64,000 nt of DNA from Candidatus Poribacteria bacterium (GCA_965214095.1 OZ243938.1:1696001-1760000), one strand, 5' to 3'. Shown: positions 20,549 to 57,547, counted from the stretch's first letter. Numbers and translations are program-made. The notes: generated from the letters alone by a model not told the origin.

Positions 20549-20561
20549 AATTCATTGTGAT

Positions 20562-20647
20562 GCCGGGATGCTGGAATTTGGTAGACAGGCTAGATTCAGG
20601 TTCTAGTGTGCAATTTGCGCGTGAGGGTTCGAGTCCCTTTCCCGGCA
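20562..20647 (+). tRNA. tRNA-Leu(CAG), CCA not encoded
   Basis: GCCGGGA/TCCCGGC acceptor stem, CTAGA-TTCAGGT-TCTAG anticodon arm, long variable arm, GGTTCGAGTCC T-arm. Confidence 0.95.
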
Positions 20648-20675
20648 TATCATTTTTGAGGGTATTGGTTAAGTT

Positions 20676-21562: not shown

Positions 21563-22741
21563 TTATTCTCTTTGTAGGGTCTCAGGAACTAACCAAAGGA
21601 AGATAATGACTGCCAAATAACCGATTCCCCCTAAAGCGAATCCAGAATACCCCAATCCGAATAGGTCCGCGATATTGCCGACGACAACAGGTCCTGCTGA
21701 TCCTCCAAAGTCTCCAGTGAGTCGCCATAACCCGAGGAATTCTCCTGTGCCATCAGTTGGTGCTAAATCTGCCCCGAGTGTCATCATTGTCCCCGATGCG
21801 ATACCGTTCCCGAATCGCATCAGAACTGCGGCAAGGAGAAGCCATGTAAAAGAGCCTGTAAACGGCATCAATAACATACCCGTAGCAAAGATAGATATTC
21901 CGGGTACCGTTGCATATCTCCTACCGAAGCGATCCATCATTGCACCTGCAACAGGAAACATTGACATATCCACTGCAGAAGAGATCATTTCCACCAAACG
22001 GACACCTTGTGTGCTTAAACCTACTACATCTTTAGCGTATAACGGAATAATAATATGGCATCCGCGCCGTAGTGTCTGAACACAGATCTGTCCGACACCT
22101 GCCGTTGCAAGTAGTTTATAGTGTTGTTTAGAGACGTGGATAAGCTGCTTTAGATAGGGTTGTGTGTTTTGTGTATTATCCTTTGATTCTCGTTTTGTAT
22201 CCGATATTGAGAATATACAGATAATAAATGTCAGTACAGCAATTACTGCATAAACGAAAAATGGAAGTTGTAGATTTGCTCCGAGGAAGATTGCCCCAAA
22301 CTTTCCTGCGAAAGTTCCCATACGATTGACACCACCGAACAAGGCAATAGACCTACCCCGCTTTACCAGTGGAATTACATCTGTCATATATGCATGCCGA
22401 GAGAGCATCCATAGCGCATTACCGATACCACCGATCAGTTGTGCAATGACCAAATGTGTAAGCTGCTGTGCTATTCCCATTCCGATAGCTGACACGGCTA
22501 TTAGGAATAATCCGAGCAACATTGCGGATTTTCTGCCTATTCGTTCAACCAGAATTCCTGCGGGGATATTTCCAACAACACCGACAGCTATGACAATAGT
22601 GGTCAAGGTGTAGGATATATTAAAAGATTTTATGTAGATTGCATGCGTGGGTGAGATGATTCCCGCGCCTGTTGAAAGGAAAAACGCGGGGAGGTAGATA
22701 GGTAGAATTAGTGAGACACGACTAAATTTATTGGATGCCAA
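21563..22741 (-). CDS. MFS transporter
   Basis: Multi-TM protein with G.LVERIGRK and MDRFGRR motif-A copies. Confidence 0.9.
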   Translation of the reverse strand: MASNKFSRVSLILPIYLPAFFLSTGAGIISPTHAIYIKSFNISYTLTTIVIAVGVVGNIPAGILVERIGRKSAMLLGLFLIAVSAIGMGIAQQLTHLVIAQLIGGIGNALWMLSRHAYMTDVIPLVKRGRSIALFGGVNRMGTFAGKFGAIFLGANLQLPFFVYAVIAVLTFIICIFSISDTKRESKDNTQNTQPYLKQLIHVSKQHYKLLATAGVGQICVQTLRRGCHIIIPLYAKDVVGLSTQGVRLVEMISSAVDMSMFPVAGAMMDRFGRRYATVPGISIFATGMLLMPFTGSFTWLLLAAVLMRFGNGIASGTMMTLGADLAPTDGTGEFLGLWRLTGDFGGSAGPVVVGNIADLFGLGYSGFALGGIGYLAVIIFLWLVPETLQRE

Positions 22742-29534: not shown

Positions 29535-29630
29535 GGTAGGTTCGGTTTCCTAACCGAACCGAATTTGTGCCAATAGTGTTCAAAAAGGTTTTCGCAGAAG
29601 ATCCGGTTCGGTTAGGAAACCGAACCTACC
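29535..29630. repeat. GTAG-family REP doublet (REPIN-like)
   Basis: Perfect 27-bp inverted repeat GGTAGGTTCGGTTTCCTAACCGAACCG with a 42-bp spacer. Confidence 0.85.
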
Positions 29631-29712
29631 TGTCCAGGAAGGACGCTAAATTGACTCTTATGATGCCAAAAACTTTACACGCCCCTACTTGTAATCTATT
29701 GAATATTGTGTT

Positions 29713-31235: not shown

Positions 31236-32160
31236 CTATGCATCACCTTTTTCCTTGAACCTCGCAATCGCACCACGTTCTGCCATCTCCGCTCTTGCAT
31301 AATGTGCGGGCATCTGTGAGTTCTTCCATCTGCCAGCGACTTGTAAATCTACAACTGTTGCACCGGCTTTCGCGAGAGAGACCGCAGAACCGACACGCAA
31401 GGAATGTCCAGAGATAAATCCATCCACACCGGCATCCGCAGCCCGTTTTTTGATAATCCGTCTGGCAGAGACATCCGCAAGCCTACCCGGTTGAATATGG
31501 TCACCACGACGAACTGGACGGAATAATGCACCGCGAGTAATACCCGATTTCTCTTGATACCGACTAATCACCTTACGTGTATCACTGGTAACATACAAAG
31601 CTACACCAGAACCCTCTTGATCTGTCTTGGAACGCTGGACAACCAAAGTATTCTGTTTGAAATGCCCACAGTTGACAGCGACAACTTCAGAGACACGCAA
31701 CAAGCAGTCAGACATCAGCCTAATCATCGCACTATCCCGAAGCCCCGCTTATTGGTGTTATCTGCTTCAGCAAATGCACACACGCGTTCAACGTCAGCCC
31801 ACGTCAAGCCGTCAACTTGACCCCGTCCCCGACCCTTTGCATCTCTGCGGATTGTCCGTAATCGCTTTTGACTCATCGGGAATTGGACATCAACGGCTCG
31901 CACATTCACAAAATACCATTTCACTGCTGCGACACACATACTGAGCGTGGCTGGGGCAACGCCTTGTGTGTCTAATGTGGACAGGTAAGCTGCTAATTGC
32001 ACATCTGTCAGATCGCTCAATGTCGCGTCTTTAGAGGATAACCATTCTGAAACAGCACGCCACGCGGGCTGATAGGCACGTCTGGAGTTGGGAGATAGGG
32101 CATCTCACGCAATACCAATACGAAGTTTATCATCATCAGTGAGTTGTAAGTCTGTTCTCG
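31236..32160 (-). pseudogene. Cre-like tyrosine recombinase, frameshifted
   Basis: Catalytic motifs LLRVSE, SKTDQ, SGHSLRVG, GRW and HY present; SAM-like N-terminus split over frames. Confidence 0.85.
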
Positions 32161-43834: not shown

Positions 43835-44158
43835 TCATTGTTTCTTGACGAATGTCTCAACCAATCCTGATATTTTATTAAGTTTTTCATTCATCGCATT
43901 CAGATAATCCGTGATCAAATCTTTGTTCTTAACCGGTAAGTTGTAGTCTCCCCTAATAATTTCCTTACGCCACTGTTCACATTCTGCCTTTGTGCCGTAT
44001 GTGATGTTAATATAGGCTTGATCCATGCTACCGTCTGGTTTGGTATAAACGAGAGTCAGGCATGCTTCCAATTTAGCATTCTTCTCTGTGCCCGTTATTT
44101 CAAAATGCGTAACTTCATCTAAGTTGAAAGTTATGCCTTGAAAATCTATCCAATTCAT
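43835..44158 (-). CDS. Hypothetical protein
   Basis: 107-aa ORF with AGGAGA RBS. Confidence 0.7.
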   Translation of the reverse strand: MNWIDFQGITFNLDEVTHFEITGTEKNAKLEACLTLVYTKPDGSMDQAYINITYGTKAECEQWRKEIIRGDYNLPVKNKDLITDYLNAMNEKLNKISGLVETFVKKQ

Positions 44159-44265
44159 TGTAATATTTCTCCTTTAGAAAGGGTTTAAGATTCGTTTTTG
44201 TAGGTGCTATGTGTATATGATCCTTATTATTCTGTGATGGCTTCAATAACCAAGGTCGTATCTCG

Positions 44266-44778
44266 TCAGAAATAGCTGATTTCACGAAAATCAAGTTGGA
44301 AGTTTTCGCTATATTCTGTCCCTCTAATATTTTGATATGTCACATCAAATTTCACTCTTGATTGCTTGTTTTTATACCAATCGTCAGTATGTAATTCGTC
44401 TAACCGGCCTACAACAGAAGAGACTATGGCAGACATTGTTTGTCCTGAGACAAGGACTTCAATTCCGTTTGTAAGGAAGTTAATATTTTTGAGGGAACTG
44501 CTATACGCTGGCTTAAAGGAAAAATCACCATCAAACCAAATCCTATGGGCAGCTCGTGTTCCTACATTCTGCACACATAAAAATGTATCAAGATAATAAC
44601 GTTGATTTGCTTGCCGTTTTTCAAGTGTCAAAAAGAGCACGACTTCCGGTCTGTGCGTTTCGTCTGCTGTTCGCTTTGTTTCTTGCAGCAGTTTATGTGT
44701 TATGATCACATAAATTCCAGTTAGGACTACAAGTAACAAGGTACTACTTGCTATTATTAGACTGATAGTCCATTCCAT
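44266..44778 (-). CDS. Hypothetical protein with N-terminal TM anchor
   Basis: 170-aa ORF, GAGG RBS. Confidence 0.7.
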   Translation of the reverse strand: MEWTISLIIASSTLLLVVLTGIYVIITHKLLQETKRTADETHRPEVVLFLTLEKRQANQRYYLDTFLCVQNVGTRAAHRIWFDGDFSFKPAYSSSLKNINFLTNGIEVLVSGQTMSAIVSSVVGRLDELHTDDWYKNKQSRVKFDVTYQNIRGTEYSENFQLDFREISYF

Positions 44779-44851
44779 TTATTATCTACCTCTTTTCGTT
44801 TCTAAATTCTTTTTCCAGCATAAATATCAGTTCACTTATTATTTTTTTTAG

Positions 44852-44938
44852 TGCGAGGGTTTTACATCTCCCCGCAGGATGGAAAGAACACCTTGTTTAT
44901 ATAGGGCATATTTTCTTTACACGCCGCCCTCGTAGCGA
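44852..44938 (-). ncRNA. Unassigned two-hairpin leader motif, copy 1
   Basis: AGGGC-GGCGTGTAAAGAAAATAT-GCCCT and TGCGGGGA-GATGTAAAA-CCCTCGCA. Confidence 0.6.
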
Positions 44939-45076
44939 AATGGCGCGTGCGGTAACTCCGGTATAACACCCCGCACGCATAAGGTGGTTATTGCATCTCC
45001 GGATTAGCATCACTTTAAGGTAATATCCCACGTTAATCCGTTCTGTGTTCTATTCTGTATATTTTTCTTTTCAGAT

Positions 45077-45179
45077 TATAGTATATTTTGAAATTACTTG
45101 AACACTCTGCATCGGCGAGGTTAGGAAAACTCACCTACCGTGGGTCGAAAGTGTCAACTTATATTTATAATTCACTATA
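45077..45179. mobile_element. 103-bp Correia-like MITE, copy 3
   Basis: Near-identical to copies 1 and 2. Confidence 0.85.
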
Positions 45180-45380
45180 ACATAAAGCGAAAAGAACTTG
45201 GATGTGTTCAAGCCAGCACTGCATGAGTGTACCGATAATGCTTCTTAGAAAAATAATATATTCCGTCTTTGTAGACTTCGGTTGACTTACACTATAGAGT
45301 CTTAACTCTTCTCAAATGAACTAAAATTCTATGGCACGAGTCTATGTGGTTGTCCCCGCAGCTAAAGCAGTGGGATTGTT

Positions 45381-45530
45381 ACGACTTGTGCTAGTTAACA
45401 CCGAGTTGATTATGAATTCACATATATCGTCCCTACGGGACTAAAGAGCATCTTAAGAGAAAGATATACGGACAATATAACCTGAATGTGTGAAGTAATA
45501 CTTAACATTTAGTTATTTAGCACAAGTCGT
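45381..45530. mobile_element. 150-bp MITE with 7-bp target-site duplication
   Basis: 13-bp perfect TIR ACGACTTGTGCTA; GATTGTT direct repeats at 45374-45380 and 45531-45537. Confidence 0.85.
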
Positions 45531-45539
45531 GATTGTTCG

Positions 45540-48500
45540 TTAATTTCCTTCATGGCTGCCTTTAACTTCACTCCAGCTTAGTAACACCTTATCCTTCGCA
45601 GACACAAGCCCCCTCAACCGAACAGTCGTGAGCTGTTCACGGATGCCGTCATGTGAGACATCTTCTAACCGATAATAGTAGACAGTATTTGGCTTAGCCG
45701 TAGTATCTGTCCACGTATATTCAGTGCGTTGACCTGTCGTGCCTGCACCTTGAATGAGTTTTGGATTGATGACTTTGAACTTGCCATCATTGTTTCGACT
45801 GCGATAGATGTAAAAACCCGCATTGTCCACTTCTGACTCCGTCGTCCATTTCAAAAATACACCCGAGAGGGTTTGCTCCGCACGGAAACTGGACAAGGAT
45901 ACGGGCAAAGGTAGGTTGCTTGACGCGTCCCATAACTGTACCTTTCCGTCACTGGCAGCTGCGAGCATCTGTCCATCGGGATGAAACGCTAAATACGAGA
46001 CACCCCCAGACACCTTGAGTGTTTTTCTGTGTGTGCCTGTCCTGACATTCCACAAATAGACAGGAGAGAGTCCACTTGCGAGCGTCTTGCTATTGGGATG
46101 AAACGCCAAGCTATTACTCACGCTGAGATGTCCTATAAGTGTATGCAGCAGTCTACCAGTGCGCACATCCCATAGACGGACAATTGTATCTGACCCCGAA
46201 CTCGCAAGGATTTTACTATCCGGACTGAACGCCAAGTCATTAACTGAATCTTGATGTCCTATGAGTGTGTGTCGGATTTTACCTGTGCGAACATCAAATA
46301 AATGGATACGACCATCCCATAACCCGCTTGCGAGCGTCCGCAAATCTGGGCTGAACACTTCTCCTCCAGTCAAAAGCTCTACGGGACTGTCTGATTGGAT
46401 TCTTCCGGTGTGAACATCCCATAAACGGATACTACCTTTTGACCTGGTTTTTGACTGAATCGCACCGGCAAGCGTCTGACCATCAGGAGAAAATGCGACG
46501 CTCCCCGCTGTTTCATTATCTGGTATGGGTATGCCCCGTTGGATTTCACCTGTGTCAACATCCCATAAATAAATGCTATTCTCGTCCAGCCATACCTCCC
46601 CTGCGATTGTCTGACTATCCGGAGAGAAAGCAAAGGATACCCGTTGTCCTATCCCTGCCAAAGTATGTCGCACTTTATGCGTGCGAACATCCCATAACCG
46701 TATGACACCTGCCTCCTTAGTTGCGAGTGTCTGTCCATCCGGACTAAACATGATCATGCCGATACCACCCACCGTAAACTCTTTGAAGGTATGACGTGAC
46801 AAACCTGTATCAACATCCCATAAACAGATGTTACTATCTTCTGAACTTATACTTGCGAGGGTGTTACCATCTGGACTAAACACAACGCTTGAGACAATAT
46901 AAGGAATATGTCCATCAAGTGCTTGTTGGATGTCACCTGTGCCAACATTCCATAAACGGATACTACCTATCCCCGAACTTGCAAGCGTTTTGCCATTAGG
47001 GCTAAACGCCACGTTAAAAATCCATCCCTGATGATGAAATCTGTCCCGAATCGCACCCGTGTCAACATCCCATAAATAGACGGTGTCATCAAAACCACCG
47101 CTTGCCAACGTCTCACCATCCGGACTAAACGTTACACTCTTAACCCTGTGCTGATGGTCTTTGAGGGTGTGCAGGATGTCACCCGTGTCAACATCCCATA
47201 AACGGACGGTGTCGTCCCCTCCACCGCTCGCTAATGTCCGGCCATCCGGACTAAACGCTACGCTATTGATATTCACGACAGTATCTATGAGTGTGTGACG
47301 AATTATGTTTTTGCTGTAATCCCATAAACGAATACTACCATCCGAACCCGCAATCGCAAGCAACTGCCCATCGGGAGAAAACGCTAAGTCAAGCACGTAA
47401 GTCTTACCTGAACGTGTATGTAGTATTTTCCCCGTGTGAACATCCCATATATACGCATACTTCCAATAGCCACCCGAGATGCGCTGTCCATCCAGACTAA
47501 ACGCAATATTGCCGATGCCCCCATCTGCCCCCGTTAATAGATCAACGGGATGCTGGGTCTGTGCATCGTAGAGCGTAATCCCATCCCCCGCAACCGCAAA
47601 ATGCTGCCCATCGGGAGAAAACGCTATATCAGAAGCACCGCCTTTCCCCAAAGCCCGTGTTGGCTCGTAGAAATCGGACTCTGCCTGCAAGAAAGGTATA
47701 ATGTCAATTGGGAAATACTGTGTGCGTATCATGACACCGGACGTATCAATCAGCTGCAGATAGACGTTGCGATCATCGGGTAACAATGCAACGGTGACAA
47801 ACTCGACAATGCTATTAGGTGTCGTGGCTAAACGTTTGCCAGCAACAAAATCAGGGTATTGGCTGTAAGAATTCGCCGGTCTCAGTAATTGTGCTTGATG
47901 CAGCAGTCCATTAGAACCAGTTATTTCAAAACGAAGCCGTATCGTATTCGGAGACGCTGTGGCACTCAGGGGCAACATCTGAACCGTGGGCACCTGAACG
48001 CTGTCTAAATCAATAGGAGTGCGTGGCGGATTGAATGCAGCATGCACATCAAGCCAATGGGCAGTCCAATATGTGTTGAGCATTCGATCATGACTAAAAG
48101 AGACGACTGTTTTGTTTTCAATGTCCCGACTATAGAACCCGTGATTTAATCCAAAGGTATGTCCGAGTTCATGCGCAATCGTATCCACATCAAAGCAGTC
48201 CCCGGATGCAGGCACAAGTGCCTGTCCCGCGTCGTTCCATCCTGAACCACGACCGCAAGCTTCACCACGATCAAGTATTTCACTGCTTATATCTATCGCC
48301 GCGAGATAGATGTTCTTTGACGTGTCAAACTTTTCTTCTATTTCAGATCACATATCAAACGTGTATTGTAAATTATTATAATATTCATCTGTGAATTGTC
48401 CGGTGACATGATGCACGACTGCTTTACCGCTGGCATCGGTTTCGTAGAGAAAAGTTTTTCTGTCAAACCCGTGTGCTTCCATCTGATTGGCGAACAGCAT

Positions 48501-48680
48501 CTGCGTATCCTTTATTAGCGTATCTAACTTATTATTGATGTCTGGCTGCGGATCACGGTCTTTTGGCAGAAAATAGATCAGTCGAACTATAGGACGTTCG
48601 CGCTGTTCTGCAGATGAAAAAGTGACAATCCCAAAACTTAGCAAAACGGCAACGATAAGAAAAAGTTTTCTAAATCTCAT
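45540..48680 (-). pseudogene. Secreted metallopeptidase-WD40 protein with LPVxLS-type C-terminal domain; one in-frame TGA at 48348-48350
   Basis: Both ORFs share a frame; readthrough gives TFDM*SEIEEKFD, homologous to 36590-38761; HELGH motif, many WD40 repeats. Confidence 0.85.
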
Positions 48681-48822
48681 AAAATACTCCAATATTACGT
48701 GATTTGTAAAATCATACTGTGTTGAGTTGTTATCGGAGTTCCCTCCTACAACGACAGAGCTATATTCAGTAGGAGCGATCTCCGAATCACGATATTTACC
48801 TGCCAAATAAGAGTGGACACAG

Positions 48823-48934
48823 CACTAGTGGTCTGTCTACCTTATTTTAAGGGTAATATAATCGTAGGGGCGAGGTCACCTCGCCCTCTTCCAAATCATA
48901 TACCCACAATTTTAGTATGGACAGTCCACTAGTG
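48823..48934. mobile_element. MITE with CTAG-containing ends enclosing a GTAG hairpin
   Basis: CACTAGTGGTCTGTC / GACAGTCCACTAGTG TIRs; internal GTAGGGGCGAGGTCACCTCGCCCT. Confidence 0.75.
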
Positions 48935-48999
48935 ACAAGAAAGTGCCCGCGCAGGCATAAGAGAATTAGTATAACCTACGAGCTGTTGCAGAGGTAAGT

Positions 49000-49447
49000 T
49001 TAGTTATGTGCGTCGCCAGCATGTTCCCCACCTGTACTATCACCACCACTGCCAACTTCGGCATGCGGAGACCATCCAGTGAAGCTTTGCCCTGTCGCAT
49101 CTAACGTGACGGATTTCTTTTCACCAGCTGCAAGGCTTACATTTGGTGTAGGTCCAAGTTCTACCCCGTTAGAAAGGTGAATTTCAACCCTGACCTGATC
49201 GATGGTTGCATTGGTAGTATTCTCTATAGTCCCTTCAAACATACTATTCGCAGGATTGTAGTTTATTACCAGCCGAACTCCAAGTCTGACCGTATTATAA
49301 GTTTCATCCAGTGCGAGTTGTGTTCCTGACTCTTCGCCACCTTCACTGCCTTCACCAGTAATTGGAGTGCTTGACCTTGAACAACTAATCATAAAAACCA
49401 TGCATGCGACTGCGATTATGGTTGAGAGATCCAGATTTTAAATTCAT
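49000..49447 (-). pseudogene. Paralog of the 39045-39503 lipoprotein with a frameshift in the signal peptide
   Basis: The RBS-preceded ATG at 49447 is 46 nt from the in-frame ATG at 49401; shares EESGTQL...QVRVE.HLSNGVELGPTP...W.PHAEVG. Confidence 0.7.
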
Positions 49448-49475
49448 TTTGATTCTCCTTTTTCATATTTAATGT

Positions 49476-49510
49476 GATCGCTATTGTTTACACGCCGCGA
49501 CCGAAGCGAG
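49476..49510 (-). ncRNA. Leader motif copy 2 (first hairpin only)
   Basis: GGTCGC-GGCGTGTAAACAATA-GCGATC. Confidence 0.5.
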
Positions 49511-49690
49511 ATTGTTACGACCCCATTTCCAAAGTTTTCCTATCAAGTAAAACATACTTATGTGTGCCATCTGTAATATATATGTCAACTATTTCAACAG
49601 ACATCAATTCACCATATTCTACGTTGCATCCGACAAGTCCTCAAGTGATATAGATGCCAAATAATAAAAGTATCTTTTTTTAATTATGTT

Positions 49691-50281
49691 TTATTTTTCT
49701 TCTAACAACAGCAACATATTCAGGTTTTGTTCAATTGCCAATTTTTTGACACGCTTGTTCACAGATGGATATGTATTGCGTTCAGTGTATGTGATAGAGA
49801 CAGCATCAGAGCCTGTATCTATCACTTTGACATTGATAATTTTGACACGATCTCCGATATACGCTGAATTCATTCCTATCAAGTTCCGTTTATCAATTGC
49901 TGTCAAATAGTAAAAAACACCTGTTCCGCCCAAACTATAGCCAACAGGAACAAAAATATATCTGTCTGTCTGCACAGCATCAGAAAAATGAACCAAATAG
50001 TTAACAATATGGGGAACGCCTCCGCTATTCTTATACCAAGTCTGACCATAATAGATGCCCGCTTGATACTGTTTTTTTCCGATCCCGACGACAAATTGAA
50101 CCGGATGTCCTTGTTCAGTTGCTTTTACTTCTGGAACAGTAAGAGTAGCTTGTGGCAAAATGGATTTCATTGGCGCGTTTAATTTGATGAAATCTACCCT
50201 TTTACTGCACGATAAAAGATAAAGAGTTATAAATAAAAACAGGATATAACCTGTTCGTATAACACGTTGATTATCATTCAT
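49691..50281 (-). CDS. Hypothetical lipoprotein
   Basis: Likely start MNDNQR at 50281; LLSC lipobox; intact paralog of 39528-40125. Confidence 0.75.
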   Translation of the reverse strand: MNDNQRVIRTGYILFLFITLYLLSCSKRVDFIKLNAPMKSILPQATLTVPEVKATEQGHPVQFVVGIGKKQYQAGIYYGQTWYKNSGGVPHIVNYLVHFSDAVQTDRYIFVPVGYSLGGTGVFYYLTAIDKRNLIGMNSAYIGDRVKIINVKVIDTGSDAVSITYTERNTYPSVNKRVKKLAIEQNLNMLLLLEEK

Positions 50282-50522
50282 TTTTGTTTCTGGCATGCTA
50301 CAATCTGTGGTTTCCTTTTTTAAGCAATTCATATTAATTTGCGAGTTTGCATGAAATGGTGATGAGTCTAACTGATTTCGCAAGTGTCATCAATTAATGG
50401 TGTTCATTTCCACTTTTACCGCACGGAATTGGGTGATGAAAAATATAGTTTTTTCACAAGTTCTTAACTACTTATTACTAAATTTTATATCGTCTTATCA
50501 TCGTGATCCTCTTTTGTGAGTA

Positions 50523-50601
50523 TGCGAGGGTTTAGCGTCTCCCCGCAGGACGTGTGAAACGTTTTTGTTGTGGATATTTTTACACGCCTCCACGGGGCGA
50601 G
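50523..50601 (-). ncRNA. Leader motif copy 3
   Basis: GTGGA-GGCGTGTAAAAATA-TCCAC and TGCGGGGA-GACGCTAAA-CCCTCGCA. Confidence 0.6.
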
Positions 50602-50884
50602 ACCTTAAATTTCGCGATTAATTATCATCACTCAAGGAACTGTTGTTGATTATCAACTCACCCAATAGGTTCTCAACTTATTCTTAGCAGAAAACCTTTC
50701 AATCGTTGTATCCGAGAGTATCCGTTGTTCACCAACGAAAGACATATCTTCAATCCAATAATAACGTTGCAGATATATCTTTCCACGTATACTCCGTGCG
50801 TTCACGTTTTGGATATATCACATGTTTCCTGAGCAATGATTATATGATCTCTGAATGCAATGAATTCTCCTTTGTCCTGTCAAA

Positions 50885-51214
50885 TTACAAAAGATCATTG
50901 CAAATCGGTTCTTGTCTTTGTATCAGATCATGGACAATCTTAAGTCGACAAGCAGAGTCATCCTCAAAATGGACACATACTCCATTCGCAAACCATATAT
51001 TCATGCACATCCATTTGTCATAGAGCAAAAGATGACTACCAAGTTTATCTGTCTCTCCAATATGCAACGCATCATAGAAACCATTATCTGCTTTGATGTA
51101 AATGTAAATAGCACCCGTATCCGGTAAATCTGCGTGTAGCGGATAAAGCGTAAACAGATAATAATGACCTGAGATGCCAGCAAAATAGACCTCTTTATTT
51201 TCCATTTCCGTCAT
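50885..51214 (-). CDS. Small GIY-YIG-like protein
   Basis: GAIYIY...LHIGET..L pattern; possibly catalytically degenerate. Confidence 0.55.
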   Translation of the reverse strand: MTEMENKEVYFAGISGHYYLFTLYPLHADLPDTGAIYIYIKADNGFYDALHIGETDKLGSHLLLYDKWMCMNIWFANGVCVHFEDDSACRLKIVHDLIQRQEPICNDLL

Positions 51215-51357
51215 AAGAAACCTCTATTCGTATATAACTCACCTTCTGTTTATCTTTTCATCACACCATACAATTCCACATATCGTTAAGAATGCCAAAA
51301 TACATATTACTATTATTGAAATCATCGTTTCTATTCCGATAACCAGTTTCAATAGAA

Positions 51358-52163
51358 CTATTCAAATTTTGCTATACCTTTATTTGTGATATACCAAGCA
51401 TCTAAACCAAACGGAGATATAAGTCCCTCCTTCTGAAGTTTATTAAGTATATTGCGAACGACAACATAATCAGAATTACTATCTTCAGTGGGTGTTAAAA
51501 GGATACGGATAACCTCGCTAATATCTTTCGTTGAGAGACGATCTCCTTGCTTTTCAAAAGCATATACTTGATACAGGACAGTATTTTTAAGTTCAGTATC
51601 TGTGAGAACAGTATTGATGAAAGGGATATTGTGCTGTTCCCAGCCTGTACGTAATAAGTTTACTATTAGATCATTGTATCCGTTTGATTTTGGGTTTAGT
51701 GCAATGTCTGTGTTCCATTTGTCTGTATTTTCATTGTGGATGACACTAATAATTATCTTTAATGTTTGGAGTGATCCATCGCCCTGGTAGATGTAAAGAT
51801 ATGGAAATACGGAGTTACCTGTATATATCCAATCTACTGGAGAATTTGGGATAATTGGTGTGTCCTCTCTAGGTCTATAGGTATGCACTATTGGAATACC
51901 AAATGTGTCGTCATGCTTAATTGAAGGTCCTAAATCTACCCAAGCGATTTGTTTCGCTTTTTTCTCAGTTTTGAAAGATTTTTTGAAAACCAATGATTCA
52001 TCTCCATATCATGTTTTTCACAGCGATTGCATGGACATTTTTCATCACACCGTGCGTATTCGCCTCTCAGATAATCTATGCTCACGCCAATCAGTACAAA
52101 CCCGATAGCACTAAAAACACCCCCCAAAACGTGTAATCCGATTGTAATAAGAGCATCAAGCAA
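51358..52163 (-). CDS. Hypothetical protein with C-terminal winged-helix-like region, possibly frameshifted (ORFs 51936-52163 and 51358-51993)
   Basis: Overlapping ORFs; C-terminal LNKLQKEGLI...WYITNKG. Confidence 0.45.
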
Positions 52164-52226
52164 GGTATATTTTCCTCAATCCACCGAATAGTGTTATTTT
52201 TATCAACTGAAGCCACATAAATCATT

Positions 52227-52317
52227 GTAGGAAAGAACTCCGATTCCCGATAGGTCTCAAGTCGGAGATCGCTCCTACAGGTTTGTTGAACATATTTTGC
52301 CAAAAACTTTACACACC
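52227..52317. repeat. GTAG REP doublet followed by an orphan ISKra4-like terminal repeat
   Basis: GTAGG...TCGGAGATCGCTCCTAC related to 48732-48792; TGCCAAAAACTTTACACACC is the reverse complement of 56685-56704. Confidence 0.65.
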
Positions 52318-55314
52318 TTATTTCCTTATCAACATCTTGCGCGTAGCAGAATAATCTCCCGCTGTTAGTGTATAGAAATACACACCACTTGCGATACGTT
52401 CTCCTAAACTATTGTGACCATCCCAATATGCTGCACGTTTCCTGTCAGTGTAAAATCCAGCTGATTGATGTCCAAGTGGAAGTATACGAACTACACGTCC
52501 TTTCATATCATAAATTGTTATCTGAACATTGCTGGTGTTTGCTAAGTTATACGGTATCCACGTCTCAGGATTAAACGGATTCGGATAGTTCGGCAATAAT
52601 GCAGTTGTTTCTGGATGCAACGAATTCAAGAGGTTTTGTAGCGCATGGATACCTCTGCGAAAAGCAGGACTCCCATCATCCGCTTCTATCGCTTGTTCTC
52701 GCCAACTTTGTATTTGGTCGGCAGTTGGACTGTTGGCAGATGGTGCAGCTATATCTTCTTCACCGAAATGGCTGGCAACTACCACTAAATCTAAAATATT
52801 GACAGTGCCATCACCGTTGGCATCTGCTCTTTCGATCGACGTGTCAAATGTAGCAACGATAACGAGATCCAATATGTCAATCACACCATCTTCGTTGACA
52901 TCGTACTCACTATATTCAGGTTCACTATCTACTTCAAAACGTACGATTTCGGTAAAGTCCGCAAGGAGTTTATTTTGCGCCTTATCAAATACAGTCATTT
53001 GTGCAATTCCCCACGTACCAGGGATACTGCCAACAGGTAAGATAATCGTTTTGTAGTAGGTATCATAGACAGTGGGGTCACCTAAAAAATAGATTTTGTA
53101 AAAATCTTCATGGTGGTGTCTAAAGAAGTGTGTCACACCTTGAGGGTCACGTAAATAGATCTCTGTTTTTGAATATCCACTAATATTGTCTTTGACCTTA
53201 AAAGTAATATCTACTTGTGTTTCACCATTTGGTTGTTCAGGATTTGTTGGCACAGCTGTTACAGTAATCCGGTTCAAATCCAGCACCGGCGGTGTGCTAT
53301 CAGGGTTTATTGATTGTACCTCAATAGTGGCAGGTAACTCATCAACGATCTCCTGATCTTCTCTTAAAACGCCAAATGATTTGGTAAAGTATACACCACG
53401 TTTGTTTCGTCCTATATCGGTCATACTAATATAGTTAACCGCATAGGTCCCGCTCTGATAGTAGTCGGGAATTATGAGTTCAACAGTCGCTTCACCCGTA
53501 TCTTTATTGTATGTTCCCCATTTTTCCGATCTACGAGAGTAGGTTTCATCGTTTACATCATTTGCTCGTGCTAAGACACCTACAACATCATTTTCTTCCA
53601 GAATCTGCCAACGAGCAGTAATAATTTGGTAACGTTTTCCATCTTCCATACTGTCTGACAAGGAAAGCTTCATTGAGTTTTTGACATAAATCGGAGCTTC
53701 ATCGTCTGCCAGCGGATTGTTCATATAGAGTTTCCATCCAAAATCGACTTGGGATTGATGCCGCTCATTGCCTTGTGAGTCACCGAGGGTAATTGCGTCG
53801 GGTCCCCAATAACCGTGCGCCGCATAGCGTGATATCGTCTTCTCACCTCGTAGCAGATGTGACGCATCAACGCGATGTCCACTATCGGTGTCAATAGGAA
53901 GAAGCCAGATGTCAAAGTACGTACCTGTTGGACTTAAACTTCTGACAAGCGACGCTTGTGCGTTGTCAAAATCACTCGTCTTATGAAGCTCAAGTTCAAT
54001 CACAATATGTTTATCCTCTTCCGGTTCACCATTCACCTGTATATCCACCCGGACAATCCTTCCCGGATACACAACATCTGGATACAGGTTGTAAACCTGA
54101 AATGTCAAATCTTCGCGTATCCGCGAGATGTATCGTGTTCCGTGCATAATCCTGTCTTGTATGAATTGATATTTGGCGGGAGAACGTGAGCGGAGTTTGT
54201 CCGGATTTACGATATAAAAGCTAATGCTCTCTGCCATATCCTCATTCGGGTTCACACCATGAGCATAAGCGGAGACAAATTCTGTCTGCTTCGTCGTTGA
54301 CCAACCATCCTCATCGTCTGGGTTTTCATACCAGCCACCGAGTTCAATCCAATCCTGTATGAGTTGATCATCAAAGAGGTGTTCCCATAAAAAGTGTGCC
54401 TTTTCATGTAGAATCAAGCGATTGATATAGTCTGCACCTTGTACCTGAAAAGCGGATTCCATAAATTCAATGTAGCCACTCAATGGCCACGCAACCGCAG
54501 GGGCTACCGGATAAAGCGGATGTGGTGTTCCATCTAAACGTCGAACCAGATAATTAAGCCCCGCTGTTTTATGCATGCCTTGCGGATATTCCTCAAACAT
54601 CGTAGCAATAGCAATGAGTTCTTCGTTTTTGAATGTTGTGAAACGTGCAGCATGCTCACCGGTTGTGTAGCGTGTCAGTTCGGTATAATCCGGGACGTTT
54701 ATGCTGACCGCATAGCGTTCTTGCAATATCCGTTCAAGTGCCACTCTATCAGCACCATCATCCGTTACAAACCGAACGACAGCATGATGTAGTCGTTTAG
54801 AAAAATACCTGCCACGCACACCTTCAATCTCCGCTAACAGTGGGGATGCATACGTAAATGCCTCTTCTGCAATCGTCACAACTTTCTGCCTATTTTTAAA
54901 TTCAATATTGATGTCATCTTGAACATGACTATCAGTTAGCCGCCACAAAGAAGCGGACACTGATGGAATCTCTTTATAAGGATCGTTCACTTCTTGCGGT
55001 ATCGTTTCAAATGTGCTTAGCAACCTGTAGGCTTTCCCCGCATTCCACTCTGGACCGAGATGGACAGAATATTTCTGCATCAACCGTAAAGACGCGCTGT
55101 GCGATGGCACTTGTATCACCTCATCTAACAGCACTACCTTGACAGGTTCAATCACAGTTGCACTTTCACTACCTTCGGGGGTCTCATCTATCTGCCAATT
55201 GAAGTTATAGGTGATGCCTTGAGAAACAACACCGCTTAAAAGGATAACGGAAATTAACACTATTCTATAAGTTCGCAACATCACCGGTTTTTGTGAACAT
55301 AATTTTGTGAACAT
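52318..55314 (-). CDS. Secreted zinc metallopeptidase with dockerin and NPFNP C-terminal domain
   Basis: HEKAH...EDMAES gluzincin-like motif, DVNEDG/DANGDG dockerin pair, NYPNPFNPETWIPY...TRKMLIRK. Confidence 0.85.
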   Translation of the reverse strand: MFTKLCSQKPVMLRTYRIVLISVILLSGVVSQGITYNFNWQIDETPEGSESATVIEPVKVVLLDEVIQVPSHSASLRLMQKYSVHLGPEWNAGKAYRLLSTFETIPQEVNDPYKEIPSVSASLWRLTDSHVQDDINIEFKNRQKVVTIAEEAFTYASPLLAEIEGVRGRYFSKRLHHAVVRFVTDDGADRVALERILQERYAVSINVPDYTELTRYTTGEHAARFTTFKNEELIAIATMFEEYPQGMHKTAGLNYLVRRLDGTPHPLYPVAPAVAWPLSGYIEFMESAFQVQGADYINRLILHEKAHFLWEHLFDDQLIQDWIELGGWYENPDDEDGWSTTKQTEFVSAYAHGVNPNEDMAESISFYIVNPDKLRSRSPAKYQFIQDRIMHGTRYISRIREDLTFQVYNLYPDVVYPGRIVRVDIQVNGEPEEDKHIVIELELHKTSDFDNAQASLVRSLSPTGTYFDIWLLPIDTDSGHRVDASHLLRGEKTISRYAAHGYWGPDAITLGDSQGNERHQSQVDFGWKLYMNNPLADDEAPIYVKNSMKLSLSDSMEDGKRYQIITARWQILEENDVVGVLARANDVNDETYSRRSEKWGTYNKDTGEATVELIIPDYYQSGTYAVNYISMTDIGRNKRGVYFTKSFGVLREDQEIVDELPATIEVQSINPDSTPPVLDLNRITVTAVPTNPEQPNGETQVDITFKVKDNISGYSKTEIYLRDPQGVTHFFRHHHEDFYKIYFLGDPTVYDTYYKTIILPVGSIPGTWGIAQMTVFDKAQNKLLADFTEIVRFEVDSEPEYSEYDVNEDGVIDILDLVIVATFDTSIERADANGDGTVNILDLVVVASHFGEEDIAAPSANSPTADQIQSWREQAIEADDGSPAFRRGIHALQNLLNSLHPETTALLPNYPNPFNPETWIPYNLANTSNVQITIYDMKGRVVRILPLGHQSAGFYTDRKRAAYWDGHNSLGERIASGVYFYTLTAGDYSATRKMLIRK

Positions 55315-55638
55315 AATTATCTCCTATTAGTATATTTAGTATATAAGGTTACAAGTGTTCAGTATTTTCTGTTCAGGTCGACTCTCGCAAACTCTACCTC
55401 ACCTACAATAATTGATAAAAATAAGTTTTATGCTCTAAAGTTGACAGCAGCGTGCCACGCGCACGCTGTGTTGATTTGACTGAATACTAAAAAGGCATTC
55501 AGAGTGTTGATTCGGGTTTTGCTATATTCTATCCAACCGTGGACACCTTTATCCTGTGACTCTCTTCTATAAAACTCTGTATCAGCAAGTCGTCAAAAAG
55601 GCAAAAATCCGGAAATTGATTAACGATATTTATATTTT

Positions 55639-55929
55639 CTACCTACGTTTTTGCCGTTTACGATATTCTGCATCGGCGATTCGCCAATAAGGATTATGTT
55701 TATGACCGTCCCGCTCAATCCTCCCTGTTTCATGCAATGCGTTTAACATTATTTGAACAAATTTATAATGCCAATTTGGATGGCTTGGCAGTCCAAGTGC
55801 ATGATGGATATCTGCGTCGTTCAACCACACATCACCATCGTCTAATCGGGTGATATATAGAAATTCCAATACTGCATCTTCAACAAGATATAAGCCGATT
55901 TGGGCTTGTCTGCTTATTGCTTCGTCCAT
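55639..55929 (-). CDS. Small winged-helix-like protein
   Basis: ADIHHALGL...LNALHETGRIER pattern. Confidence 0.6.
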   Translation of the reverse strand: MDEAISRQAQIGLYLVEDAVLEFLYITRLDDGDVWLNDADIHHALGLPSHPNWHYKFVQIMLNALHETGRIERDGHKHNPYWRIADAEYRKRQKRR

Positions 55930-55963
55930 GCCATATCCTGTTCTATCTCTTTCCTGTTGTTAG

Positions 55964-56040
55964 TGCGGGGGTTTAGCGTCTCCCCGCAGGACGTGTAGTG
56001 AAACGGGTCGCTATTGTTTACACGCCGCGACCAGAGCGAG
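55964..56040 (-). ncRNA. Leader motif copy 4
   Basis: GGTCGC-GGCGTGTAAACAATA-GCGACC and TGCGGGGA-GACGCTAAA-CCCCCGCA, about 35 nt upstream of the ATG. Confidence 0.6.
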
Positions 56041-56384
56041 GTCTTGTGTTGTCTTATCAAAATAATCAAAGAACCAATCTCCAATCTATTACATGTGTGA
56101 CCTTCTCATGCAACCAGACTACTTTAATCCGTTTGGAACGTATCGCTCCCATCATCAGTATTCACGTTACCTTGAATGTCAACAGTAAATATCGTTACGC
56201 TATCCGTTCCAATGAGACCTTTTTATCAGGTCCGTCATTTCACATCCTCATCAAGTTGGAGACTATAACACATAATGTCACCTTACAGGGGAGATAGAGG
56301 ATCATTACATGTTATAGCCTTGTAAGTGGCAGAACTCCTTATTCTCGCCTCTGCCTGTAGCGAGGTGTAAAAGCCTTGCGTTTG

Positions 56385-56525
56385 ATTATTTCCGTATTGA
56401 CATGTTCCGTGTCGCAGTGAAATCACCTACTGTGAGTATAGAAATACACACCTGCCGTGTTCCTCTCACCAAACATATTCGATCATCCCAAATGGATAAC
56501 ACGGTTTCTGCTACGATACACACCT
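56385..56525 (-). pseudogene. Orphan relic of an NPFNP-type C-terminal domain
   Basis: Translates with indels as GVYRSRNRVIH...GE...GVYFY...GDFTATRNMSIRK*. Confidence 0.75.
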
Positions 56526-56683
56526 TCCATAAATCCGCATAAATTATCGTAAAACAGTTAATGTGCTGTGTAGTTATAATAAATCATATTATCATATTAA
56601 TCGAATTATTTTATTATTAAGTCTATATCCAACTAATTATGATACAATATTTTTAGGTAATAAACAAGTTATGTCCATGAATA

Positions 56684-57547
56684 GGGTGTGTAAAGTTTTT
56701 GGCATGAAATTGCCTTGAATGGAGTTCTTGCTTTGCATGTATACACATAGTATCCTAACCTAATAAATAAATCACAATTTTAGGAGAGGATACCAATGTC
56801 AAGTCCATCATTGAGTGTTCATGAAAGCAACGATTGCGAAGATGATTTTAGAAAGATTGTCAAAGAAGTAAACGATCTCTATGGAGACATCAATGTTGAC
56901 GAGAGTTTATCTTTAGATGATGTTGAAGTTCGTGTTTTTGAAGCATTTCGTTCTCTTGAACAAAAGTTTTTAGAAATGTGTGTCTCTAAAAAGGCAGGTA
57001 AGAAAGAGAGTGAACCTGTTGAATGTCCGGAGTGTCCAGCACCTTGCCGTCTATTACGCAAGCGTGCGAAACATCTAACAACTCTTTGTGTCAAAATAAG
57101 TCCAAGGCGTTGGGTGTATTGTTGTGAACACGGACATAGGCATGCCCCGTGGGAAGTCAAACAGAAGTTATCGGATCAATTCGCTGAAGCGATGTGTCGT
57201 TTGTCTACGCGGCTTGCCTATAGGGAAGCATCAGAGGAGTTGTCTCATCAAGGGATAGAAGTGAGTCACACGACACTTCATCAAAGCGTGTGTCCGTGGT
57301 CAGAAGATTTGGATGTCCGTGAACAAGTAGAGGTTCAAGAACTTGCGGAAAATCAGCATTGGTATGTGAGTTGCGATGGGTGCCACACGAACTCTCCGGA
57401 TGGGTGGAAAGAGGTGAAAGTGGGGTGTATTTACAGAGATTATCCACAACCTGTTTCGGGTGGGACCCGAGTGTGAGAACAGAAAGTATTCGGTATGTTG
57501 CGGGTCGTCAGAATGCTGAAACTTTTGGTAAAAAGTTGTCCGCGTGA
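56684..57547 (+). mobile_element. Truncated ISKra4-like element
   Basis: Left end GGGTGTGTAAAGTTTTTGGCA; transposase from 56796 with CPEC, YCCEHGH and SCDG...GWKEVKVG; frameshifted and truncated. Confidence 0.75.

Follow-up and report, generated by a model that had tools for sequence, protein, structure and literature searches.

In the genome of a Candidatus Poribacteria bacterium we found a repeated element that is probably a lineage-specific, modular, structured RNA controlling translation of the genes that follow it. Four copies lie on the minus strand of the stretch analysed here (GCA_965214095.1 OZ243938.1:1696001-1760000; 64,000 nucleotides (nt), hereafter the window). The element consists of two separable modules, M1 and M2, together with an optional upstream hairpin, M0. 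Its structure, its strand, its position relative to genes, its distribution and the kinds of genes downstream of it were all read directly from the DNA.

Two modules and their copies in the window

M1 spans about 38 nt and forms a hairpin of 5-6 base pairs (bp) whose stem sequence varies between copies, with a loop GGCG, then UGUAAA, and an ending in AAUA. Its 5' flank is CUCGCC or CUCGCU, the CGCY of which is able to pair with the GGCG of the loop. M2 spans about 37 nt and forms a 7-bp, GC-rich hairpin (UGCGGGG/CCCCGCA) followed by an A-rich stretch, and the CGUC of its 5' flank is able to pair with GACG in its loop. In both modules the order of the helices is that of an H-type pseudoknot. 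The modules were located in the window as follows.

56004..56041, minus strand: copy 4 M1, stem GGUCGC/GCGACC with GGCGUGUAAACAAUA loop; its 5' CGCU may pair with the loop GGCG (M1 covariance model, 50.1 bits)
55962..55998, minus strand: copy 4 M2, UGCGGGG/CCCCGCA; its 5' CGUC may pair with the loop GACG (M2 covariance model, 52.2 bits, E 3.1e-10)
50567..50602, minus strand: copy 3 M1, stem GUGGA/UCCAC (M1 covariance model, 46.1 bits)
50521..50557, minus strand: copy 3 M2 (M2 covariance model, 50.3 bits)
49474..49511, minus strand: copy 2, M1 alone, stem GGUCGC/GCGAUC with one G-U pair (M1 covariance model, 49.9 bits)
44945..44978, minus strand: M0, optional hairpin GCGUGCGG/CCGCACGC immediately 5' of copy 1 (read from the sequence)
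44903..44940, minus strand: copy 1 M1, longer loop, stem AGGGC/GCCCU (nhmmer, E 2.4e-5, the copy itself being in the seed)
44850..44886, minus strand: copy 1 M2, candidate pseudoknot helix CAUC/GAUG (M2 covariance model, 47.0 bits)

When the whole genome was searched, covariance-model E-values to the copies ranged from 1e-6 to 1e-10. All four copies that an initial annotation of this DNA had placed on the minus strand were present, and the first-stem pairs that it gave (AGGGC/GCCCU, GGUCGC/GCGAUC, GUGGA/UCCAC and GGUCGC/GCGACC) matched its description. The sequence pattern that it attributed to all four, a GGCGUGUAAA loop and then UCC-UGCGGGGA-GA(C/U)G...AAA-CCCYCGCA, was complete in three; the copy at 49476-49510, which is M1 alone, lacks the second part and is followed by AGGAG and then by an ATG at 49446. 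In M2 of copy 1 both sides of the candidate pseudoknot helix have changed (CAUC/GAUG versus CGUC/GACG). Allowing up to 2 mismatches, TCCTGCGGGGAGA matched the window 4 times where 0.51 matches were expected, and 0 of 100 shuffles gave 4. Three of these matches are copies of the element, and the fourth, at 22556 on the plus strand, is not a covariance-model match.

Since a five-sequence, full-length MAFFT alignment misaligned M1, the two modules were modelled separately. Copy 1 was excluded from the M1 seed, its longer loop having been misaligned, and its M1 was not recovered by the M1 covariance model at E<=1. A strict regular expression for M1 recovered 2 of the 7 copies in the genome. A hairpin like M0 lies ahead of 3 of the 37 units elsewhere that begin with M1. 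A further exact GGCGTGTAAA, the fifth, lies at 29674 but was rejected as a copy because the stems are absent. Minimum free energy folds pair the M1 loop with the GUUUCAC linker or the 5' side of M2; such pairing was likewise rejected, loop variants occurring without compensation in the linker. An intergenic long inverted repeat was also seen at about 29536-29631, with arms of about 26 nt that lie about 45 nt apart.

Covariation, folding strand and position relative to genes

To examine the structure across the family, the models were searched over the window and 99 loci (with L012, a duplicate of L002, as well as L060 and L099 omitted), giving 143 M2 matches (122 distinct) and 53 M1 matches (36 distinct). 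In the M1 stem 95.4% of cells were paired over the 36 distinct copies, and 5 of the 6 pairs had changed on both sides. Double-change cells numbered 62, compared to 19.3 in shuffles (0 of 500 shuffles reached the observed value), and pairing fell to 28-47% when the partner was slid. The M2 stem was paired in 93.9% of cells over the 122 distinct copies, with M2 pair 15-47, for example, occurring as GC in 73 rows, CG in 27, GU in 15 and UA in 1. Cells with G-U exceeded those with A-C in both stems (52:18 in M2, 18:6 in M1; 70:24 combined), which indicates that the folding strand is the given strand, for the downstream genes the sense strand. The observation in the initial annotation that variable positions give G-U on the minus strand and A-C on the plus strand therefore extends across the family in the two main stems. 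The candidate M2 pseudoknot helix was paired in 91.5% of cells; M1 and M2 may each close into such a 4-bp helix, an arrangement with which the alignments are compatible and to which they lend slight weight.

Grouping of the matches gave 125 distinct units. The majority were M2 alone (84, some with a decayed M1) or M1-M2 (34), and the few others had the orders M1, M2-M2, M2-M1, M1-M2-M1 and M2-M1-M2. Spacing was analysed on the 101 units flanked on each side by 700 nt or more. An open reading frame (ORF) of at least 100 amino acids (aa) began within 60 nt downstream on the same strand in 47 of these units, with a peak at 15-20 nt, while the same ORF criterion held on the divergent strand in only 4. 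Random orientation and distance, which would have spoken against a cis-regulatory role, were thus not seen. A motif like the Shine-Dalgarno (SD) sequence lay ahead of 55 of 65 downstream starts. The distance to the upstream stop was broad (median 138 nt), i.e., looser than the spacing to the start codon. In the window itself, the ATG that had been described 20-35 nt downstream of each copy is present, but what had looked like a mini-ORF after copy 2 is a lipoprotein gene's N-terminus, put out of frame by a frameshift, and the real genes after copies 1 and 3 begin 72 nt and more than 130 nt downstream, respectively.

Taken together, the stem covariation, the sense-strand excess of G-U and the tight, oriented spacing to the start codon fit the cis-regulatory RNA that the initial annotation had proposed. 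We consider that there is about an even chance that this is a functional RNA element, acting in cis and linked to the cistron downstream of it. A promoter is disfavoured since stem covariation would not be expected of one; moreover, a scan for sigma-70-type promoters gave 37 sites versus 38.3 in shuffles, and boxes like those of extracytoplasmic function (ECF) sigma factors or sigma-54, judged by eye, showed no constant spacing.

Of the 125 units, 27 are intercistronic, beginning within 40 nt of the end of an upstream ORF on the same strand, and 5 of the 10 upstream ORF ends tested encode type IX secretion sorting domains. Several genomes have arrays in which 3-7 copies share a strand, and in one array a copy precedes each of five successive ORFs with a sixth copy after them. 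Many copies are solitary, however, and array units often hold several genes. An RNA-processing module, i.e., a self-cleaving ribozyme or nuclease site that cuts before each cistron and leaves a protective 5' structure, would account for this intercistronic location directly ahead of ribosome-binding sites, gene by gene in arrays, as well as for the very high sequence conservation and the candidate pseudoknot. Considering that no cleavage-site signature could be read in the sequence and that Rfam 15, whose coverage of all ribozyme classes was unchecked, gave no match, we regard this explanation as very improbable.

Several points weigh against a cis-acting RNA element. The loci were picked by M2 matches and the genomes are related, so the counts above are not independent. 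Support for the candidate pseudoknot helices is weak: M2 pair 7-22 occurs as GC in 96 rows, AU in 7 and GU in 2, with 16 cells unpaired, the ratio of G-U to A-C in the M2 helix is 27:23, and in the M1 helix 34 of 36 rows pair fully, 2 showing a double change and 2 a mismatch. Single-sequence folds were not unusually stable (sense-strand z of -0.95, -2.72 and -1.26), and minimum-energy folds differed from the hairpins supported by covariation. Folded single-stranded DNA would yield identical covariation. Of the four copies in the window, three are atypical, one being without M2 and two lying at least 72 nt from the real gene start. No SD sequestering and no terminator are visible in the sequence, from which no switching mechanism can be read. 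Finally, no RNA run was found to cover 46500-56400, and the one possible RNA run gave 0 contigs for the region, which says nothing about expression; two further runs, whose kind is not on record, cover the region.

Distribution, edges of shared sequence and neighbouring genes

The genome is 5.2 Mb, with a GC content of 0.41, and is 94.47% complete. It contains 7 copies of M1 by nhmmer, 6 of which were found by the covariance model together with one weak extra, and 10 copies of M2 plus one weak match. These lie at six separate places, most of them within the window and the following 20 kb. One contig of the genome (32 kb) has a GC content of 0.64, compared to 0.41 for the main contig, and may be foreign or mis-binned.

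In a first draw of genomes, the M2 model matched 29 of 36 others in the genus, with up to 22 matches per genome, and 1 of 24 in three other families of the order, where the match was weak. A phylum-wide draw of 150 genomes gave matches in 31 of 37 in the genus (the motif is patchy, being absent from 6) and in 12 of 57 in a sister genus. Elsewhere 1 of 56 matched, this one belonging to another family (1 of 26), and the remaining genera had 0. Scanning one-genome-per-species contigs with a degenerate 21-nt pattern gave 67 stretches, 55 in Poribacteria and 12 in other taxa, where about 9 would be expected by chance, as estimated from the information content of the pattern. Model matches of 22.7-33.7 bits were obtained at 5 of the 10 non-Poribacteria pattern loci searched. 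Three contigs of a single Alphaproteobacteria-labelled bin (L068, L070 and L086) carry weak M2-like matches of 22.7-27 bits, two with an insertion of about 14 nt, and these could reflect chance, mis-binning or transfer between sponge symbionts.

The pattern had 0 matches in viral contigs, and megablast of 44000-57000 against phage records found no match. Given also the chromosomal setting within one bacterial family, neither a phage origin nor the loose analogy to phage P1 C4 and P4 CI systems made in the initial annotation was borne out. Its statement that the element is not a named riboswitch did hold for Rfam 15. At gathering score, the whole window matched tRNA only (a tRNA-Leu lies at 20561-20648); at E<=10, the region 44000-57000 gave two chance-level matches, both away from the copies; and 18 Poribacteria loci with many copies (135,758 bases) gave 0 matches.

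A selfish or neutral repeat that itself has no function as RNA, such as a mobile promoter or a miniature mobile element, would likewise be multi-copy, patchy within the genus and located in variable regions, and an insertion sequence (IS)-like repeat adjoins copy 4. Such a repeat would leave unexplained the strong orientation and fixed start-codon spacing (47 versus 4), the covarying stems and a conservation exceeding that of neighbouring coding sequence. Repetitive extragenic palindromes and miniature inverted-repeat transposable elements are marked by terminal inverted repeats and by the lack of a fixed orientation or spacing. No such inverted repeats were seen here, and sigma-70-like promoter matches were at shuffle level, making this origin quite improbable. 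The repeat beside copy 4 (56684-57500 and beyond) has copies 93-95% identical elsewhere in the genome and many in relatives; it contains a 226-aa ORF (56796-57476, plus strand) with no Pfam family and may be an unclassified IS-like element.

Elsewhere in the genus, no region is syntenic with that of the window. Conservation was compared in units that share a flanking gene. In three genomes sharing the upstream gene, 32 of 38 positions were invariant in M1 and 27 of 32 in M2, compared to 44 of 60 at the upstream coding end and 9 of 56 in the stretch past M2. Similarity among these three ended at the 3' end of M2, with three unrelated genes beyond. Among six groups sharing the downstream gene, similarity started at M2 in 5 and at M1 in 1. 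By these counts, the modules are under constraint and mark the edges of shared sequence. Such edges could reflect recombination at the modules, or the functional element could be the one part that can still be aligned in fast-changing non-coding DNA. Homology of upstream but not downstream flanks (90 pairs) was rejected as evidence of orthology, being due in part to shared coding sequence for type IX secretion system (T9SS) sorting domains.

The alternative raised in the initial annotation, a single-stranded DNA recombination site, is consistent with this part of the evidence only, namely the layout of the arrays and the breaks in homology where modules end. As a cassette junction, either attC-like or an anchor for homologous exchange, the element would allow genes to be swapped at M2. 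Arrays with one copy per gene, an upstream gene and M1-M2 kept in three genomes but followed by three unrelated genes after a break at the 3' end of M2, similarity that starts at M2 in units sharing a downstream gene, the orders M2-M1, M2-M2 and M1-M2-M1, and the lack of synteny across the genus would all be expected. In integrons, the strand of attC that folds is the bottom one, which is antisense to the ORFs of the cassettes, and the R''/R' core consensus is RYYYAAC ... GTTRRRY. Here the favoured strand is the sense strand, and no RYYYAAC/GTTRRRY core sites were read by eye at the edges of the copies. The genome has 3 tyrosine recombinase matches, two of them split genes, none scoring as an integron integrase, and the two recombinases tested fell far below the cut-offs of every NCBIfam recombinase or integron-integrase model. 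A tyrosine recombinase lies within 10 kb of an array in just one of five relatives, and in one relative with 7 copies the single recombinase is at least 600 kb away. Spacing is tighter to the start codon than to the upstream stop (median 138 nt), and the unalignable DNA upstream of M2 may be merely fast-diverging non-coding sequence. A similar layout did lead Weinberg et al. (2017) to consider attC for the DUF1874 motif (PMC5737381). On balance, we consider a role as a DNA recombination site to be improbable for the Poribacteria element.

Two split tyrosine recombinase genes were noted near copies. Each is split into two ORFs. The first is at 31236-32020 of the window (minus strand), 13 kb from copy 1, and the second is on the main contig (C1:386804-387277), 3 kb from another M2 copy. 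Close to copy 1, at about 45105-45180, summed contig depth was very high (4646 in the bin 44901-45367, versus about 32 nearby, in one covering run). Since contigs break on both sides of this peak, it is a highly repeated short sequence in the sample.

The genes that follow the copies in the window are listed below.

55639..55929, minus strand: first gene after copy 4, 96 aa, no Pfam family
52318..55314, minus strand: second gene after copy 4, 998-aa secreted protein with dockerin and type IX secretion C-terminal sorting domain
49691..50383, minus strand: gene after copy 3, 230-aa frame with an internal lipoprotein-like signal, no Pfam family
49000..49446, minus strand: gene after copy 2, lipoprotein-like, frameshifted near codon 7 in this assembly
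44266..44778, minus strand: gene after copy 1, 170 aa, N-terminal membrane helix, no Pfam family

The mini-ORF at 49381-49446 (minus strand) is the out-of-frame N-terminus of the lipoprotein gene at 49000-49401, which is 84% identical to an M1-led ortholog in a relative; its frameshift may be that of a pseudogene or an assembly error. Across the loci, the downstream proteins are mutually unrelated, as had been proposed, and no pathway is common to them. Most are exported or surface proteins. They include T9SS cargo, leucine-rich repeat proteins, cohesin and dockerin proteins (including fusions to binding proteins), proteases, an acetylesterase, lipoproteins, a CoiA-like protein and small hypothetical proteins. 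N-terminal hydrophobic segments were present in 37 of 64 downstream ORFs, compared to 952 of 3186 in a crude genome background (Fisher p 6e-6). The test set comprised the 65 of 107 ORFs that start within 60 nt and have at least 60 aa, less one duplicate. Proteins of about 90-100 aa directly after M2 were seen in several genomes (55639-55929, minus strand; L026, L073 and L077), and by eye these look like winged-helix DNA binders. Between copies 1 and 2, an 891-aa WD40 gene (45540-48215, minus strand) has an 85%-identical paralogous stretch at 364089-367108 of the main contig, adjoined by a weak M1-like match at 364010-364045.

Possible mechanism and relation to known systems

If the element acts as a cis-acting RNA, it would be part of the mRNA transcript, located in a 5' leader or between two cistrons, and would fold into one or two compact hairpins, M1 and M2, each of which may close into an H-type pseudoknot. 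M2 ends about 5-10 nt before the SD sequence and 15-20 nt before the start codon, a position that corresponds to the 5' edge of the stretch covered by the 30S subunit. A trans-acting factor could bind M2, with M1 as a second site, and thereby alter ribosome loading or mRNA stability; the direction of that regulation, like transcription and factor binding, is something that we can only infer. Because the M2 stem keeps its sequence and not just its pairing, a protein is a more likely effector than a metabolite, and we tentatively put forward a protein-bound translational operator. In a still more tentative extension, M1 and M2 may be operator sites of a regulon-wide switch that works cistron by cistron, also within operons, to set the output of secreted and surface proteins for host interaction in these sponge symbionts (T9SS cargo, leucine-rich repeat, cohesin/dockerin, proteases and lipoproteins), and that would answer to a protein or small signal. 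The element might at the same time serve as a junction for gene exchange, since it is the only sequence common to otherwise unrelated genes.

A riboswitch for a small molecule or second messenger, in which M1 and M2 are tandem pseudoknot aptamers whose ligand-stabilised fold alters ribosome access, shares much of this anatomy. The modules are small, H-type in topology and located in 5' leaders, the M1 loops are conserved while the stem covaries freely, they occur in tandem and in many copies per genome ahead of diverse genes, and in minimum free energy folds the M1 loop pairs competitively with the 5' side of M2. That competing pairing is not kept across subfamilies, however, and neither an SD-sequestering or terminator platform nor an Rfam 15 family match was found. 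Of the features by which riboswitches are generally recognised, the conserved core, covarying stems and 5' leader are present, whereas genes of one pathway or ligand are not, the downstream genes having no common metabolic theme. A riboswitch is thus unlikely. Cyclic di-GMP (c-di-GMP) sensing in particular was rejected, there being no GGDEF domain and no RF01051 or RF01786 match in the 94.47% complete genome. A CsrA leader was rejected on the lack of a PF02599 match in the genome, an absence that this completeness leaves unproven.

The element would be an orphan structured mRNA leader, with nothing matching it in Rfam 15 or in the searchable literature on Poribacteria with RNA motifs or riboswitches. 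Poribacteria are uncultivated sponge symbionts whose gene regulation is essentially unknown, and a compact RNA tag on many genes for exported, eukaryote-like surface proteins would offer a handle on the control of that repertoire, one that could be tested in vitro or in a surrogate host with no need for a culture. Its more than 120 distinct copies make it a well-populated addition to the candidate structured RNAs. A candidate structured RNA has reportedly been described from Poribacteria under the name 'Poribacteria-1 RNA motif', and the present element may be identical to it. If the two are the same, this would be a rediscovery that adds the two-module anatomy, the distribution, more copies, the start-codon spacing and the gene classes. 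The word 'Poribacteria' is absent from the main text of PMC5737381.

Several known systems resemble the element in part. Its modules are similar in size to small H-type riboswitches, with which they also share the helix order S1, S2, S1', A-rich loop, S2'. The preQ1-I, SAM-II and guanidine-III riboswitches are pseudoknots of about 35-40 nt that lie just ahead of the ribosome-binding site. Unlike in these, the SD sequence of the element is outside the fold, the genes are not metabolic, the pseudoknot helices are the less certain part of the structure, and in the comparison, made through Rfam, no match was found at E<=10. The phage T4 gene 32 leader and the E. coli rpsO/S15 leader are protein-bound operator pseudoknots that act as single autoregulatory sites. 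As in these operators, a pseudoknot upstream of an A-rich spacer and SD sequence could occupy the ribosome landing zone; the Poribacteria element, in contrast, precedes dozens of unrelated genes and would be a regulon-wide operator. Many copies before genes for adhesins, proteases and surface proteins, and a GGA beside the M2 loop, recall c-di-GMP and CsrA regulons, although no GGDEF domain, c-di-GMP-I or -II match or CsrA gene was found in the genome. With integron attC sites the element shares repetition as structured sites between co-oriented genes and breaks in homology at the site. It differs in having no integron integrase and no R''/R' cores, in not being one long imperfect palindrome, in favouring the sense strand, and in that many copies are solitary or lead multi-gene units.

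The closest parallel is the DUF1874 motif, which is described as having highly conserved loop nucleotides, as occurring in likely 5' untranslated regions and as recurring from one intergenic region to the next (motif, ORF, motif, ORF), in runs at whose end no integrase lies, and with a function left open between an RNA and an attC-like DNA role (PMC5737381). Like it, the Poribacteria element is structured and recurs gene by gene in consecutive intergenic regions. It is set apart, by comparison with that description, by another lineage and sequence, two hairpin modules and a fixed spacing to the ribosome-binding site. The Poribacteria element would be a second case, after DUF1874, of a structured element recurring gene by gene in arrays, a layout that raises the issue of what such elements are for: RNA control, gene shuffling, or both.

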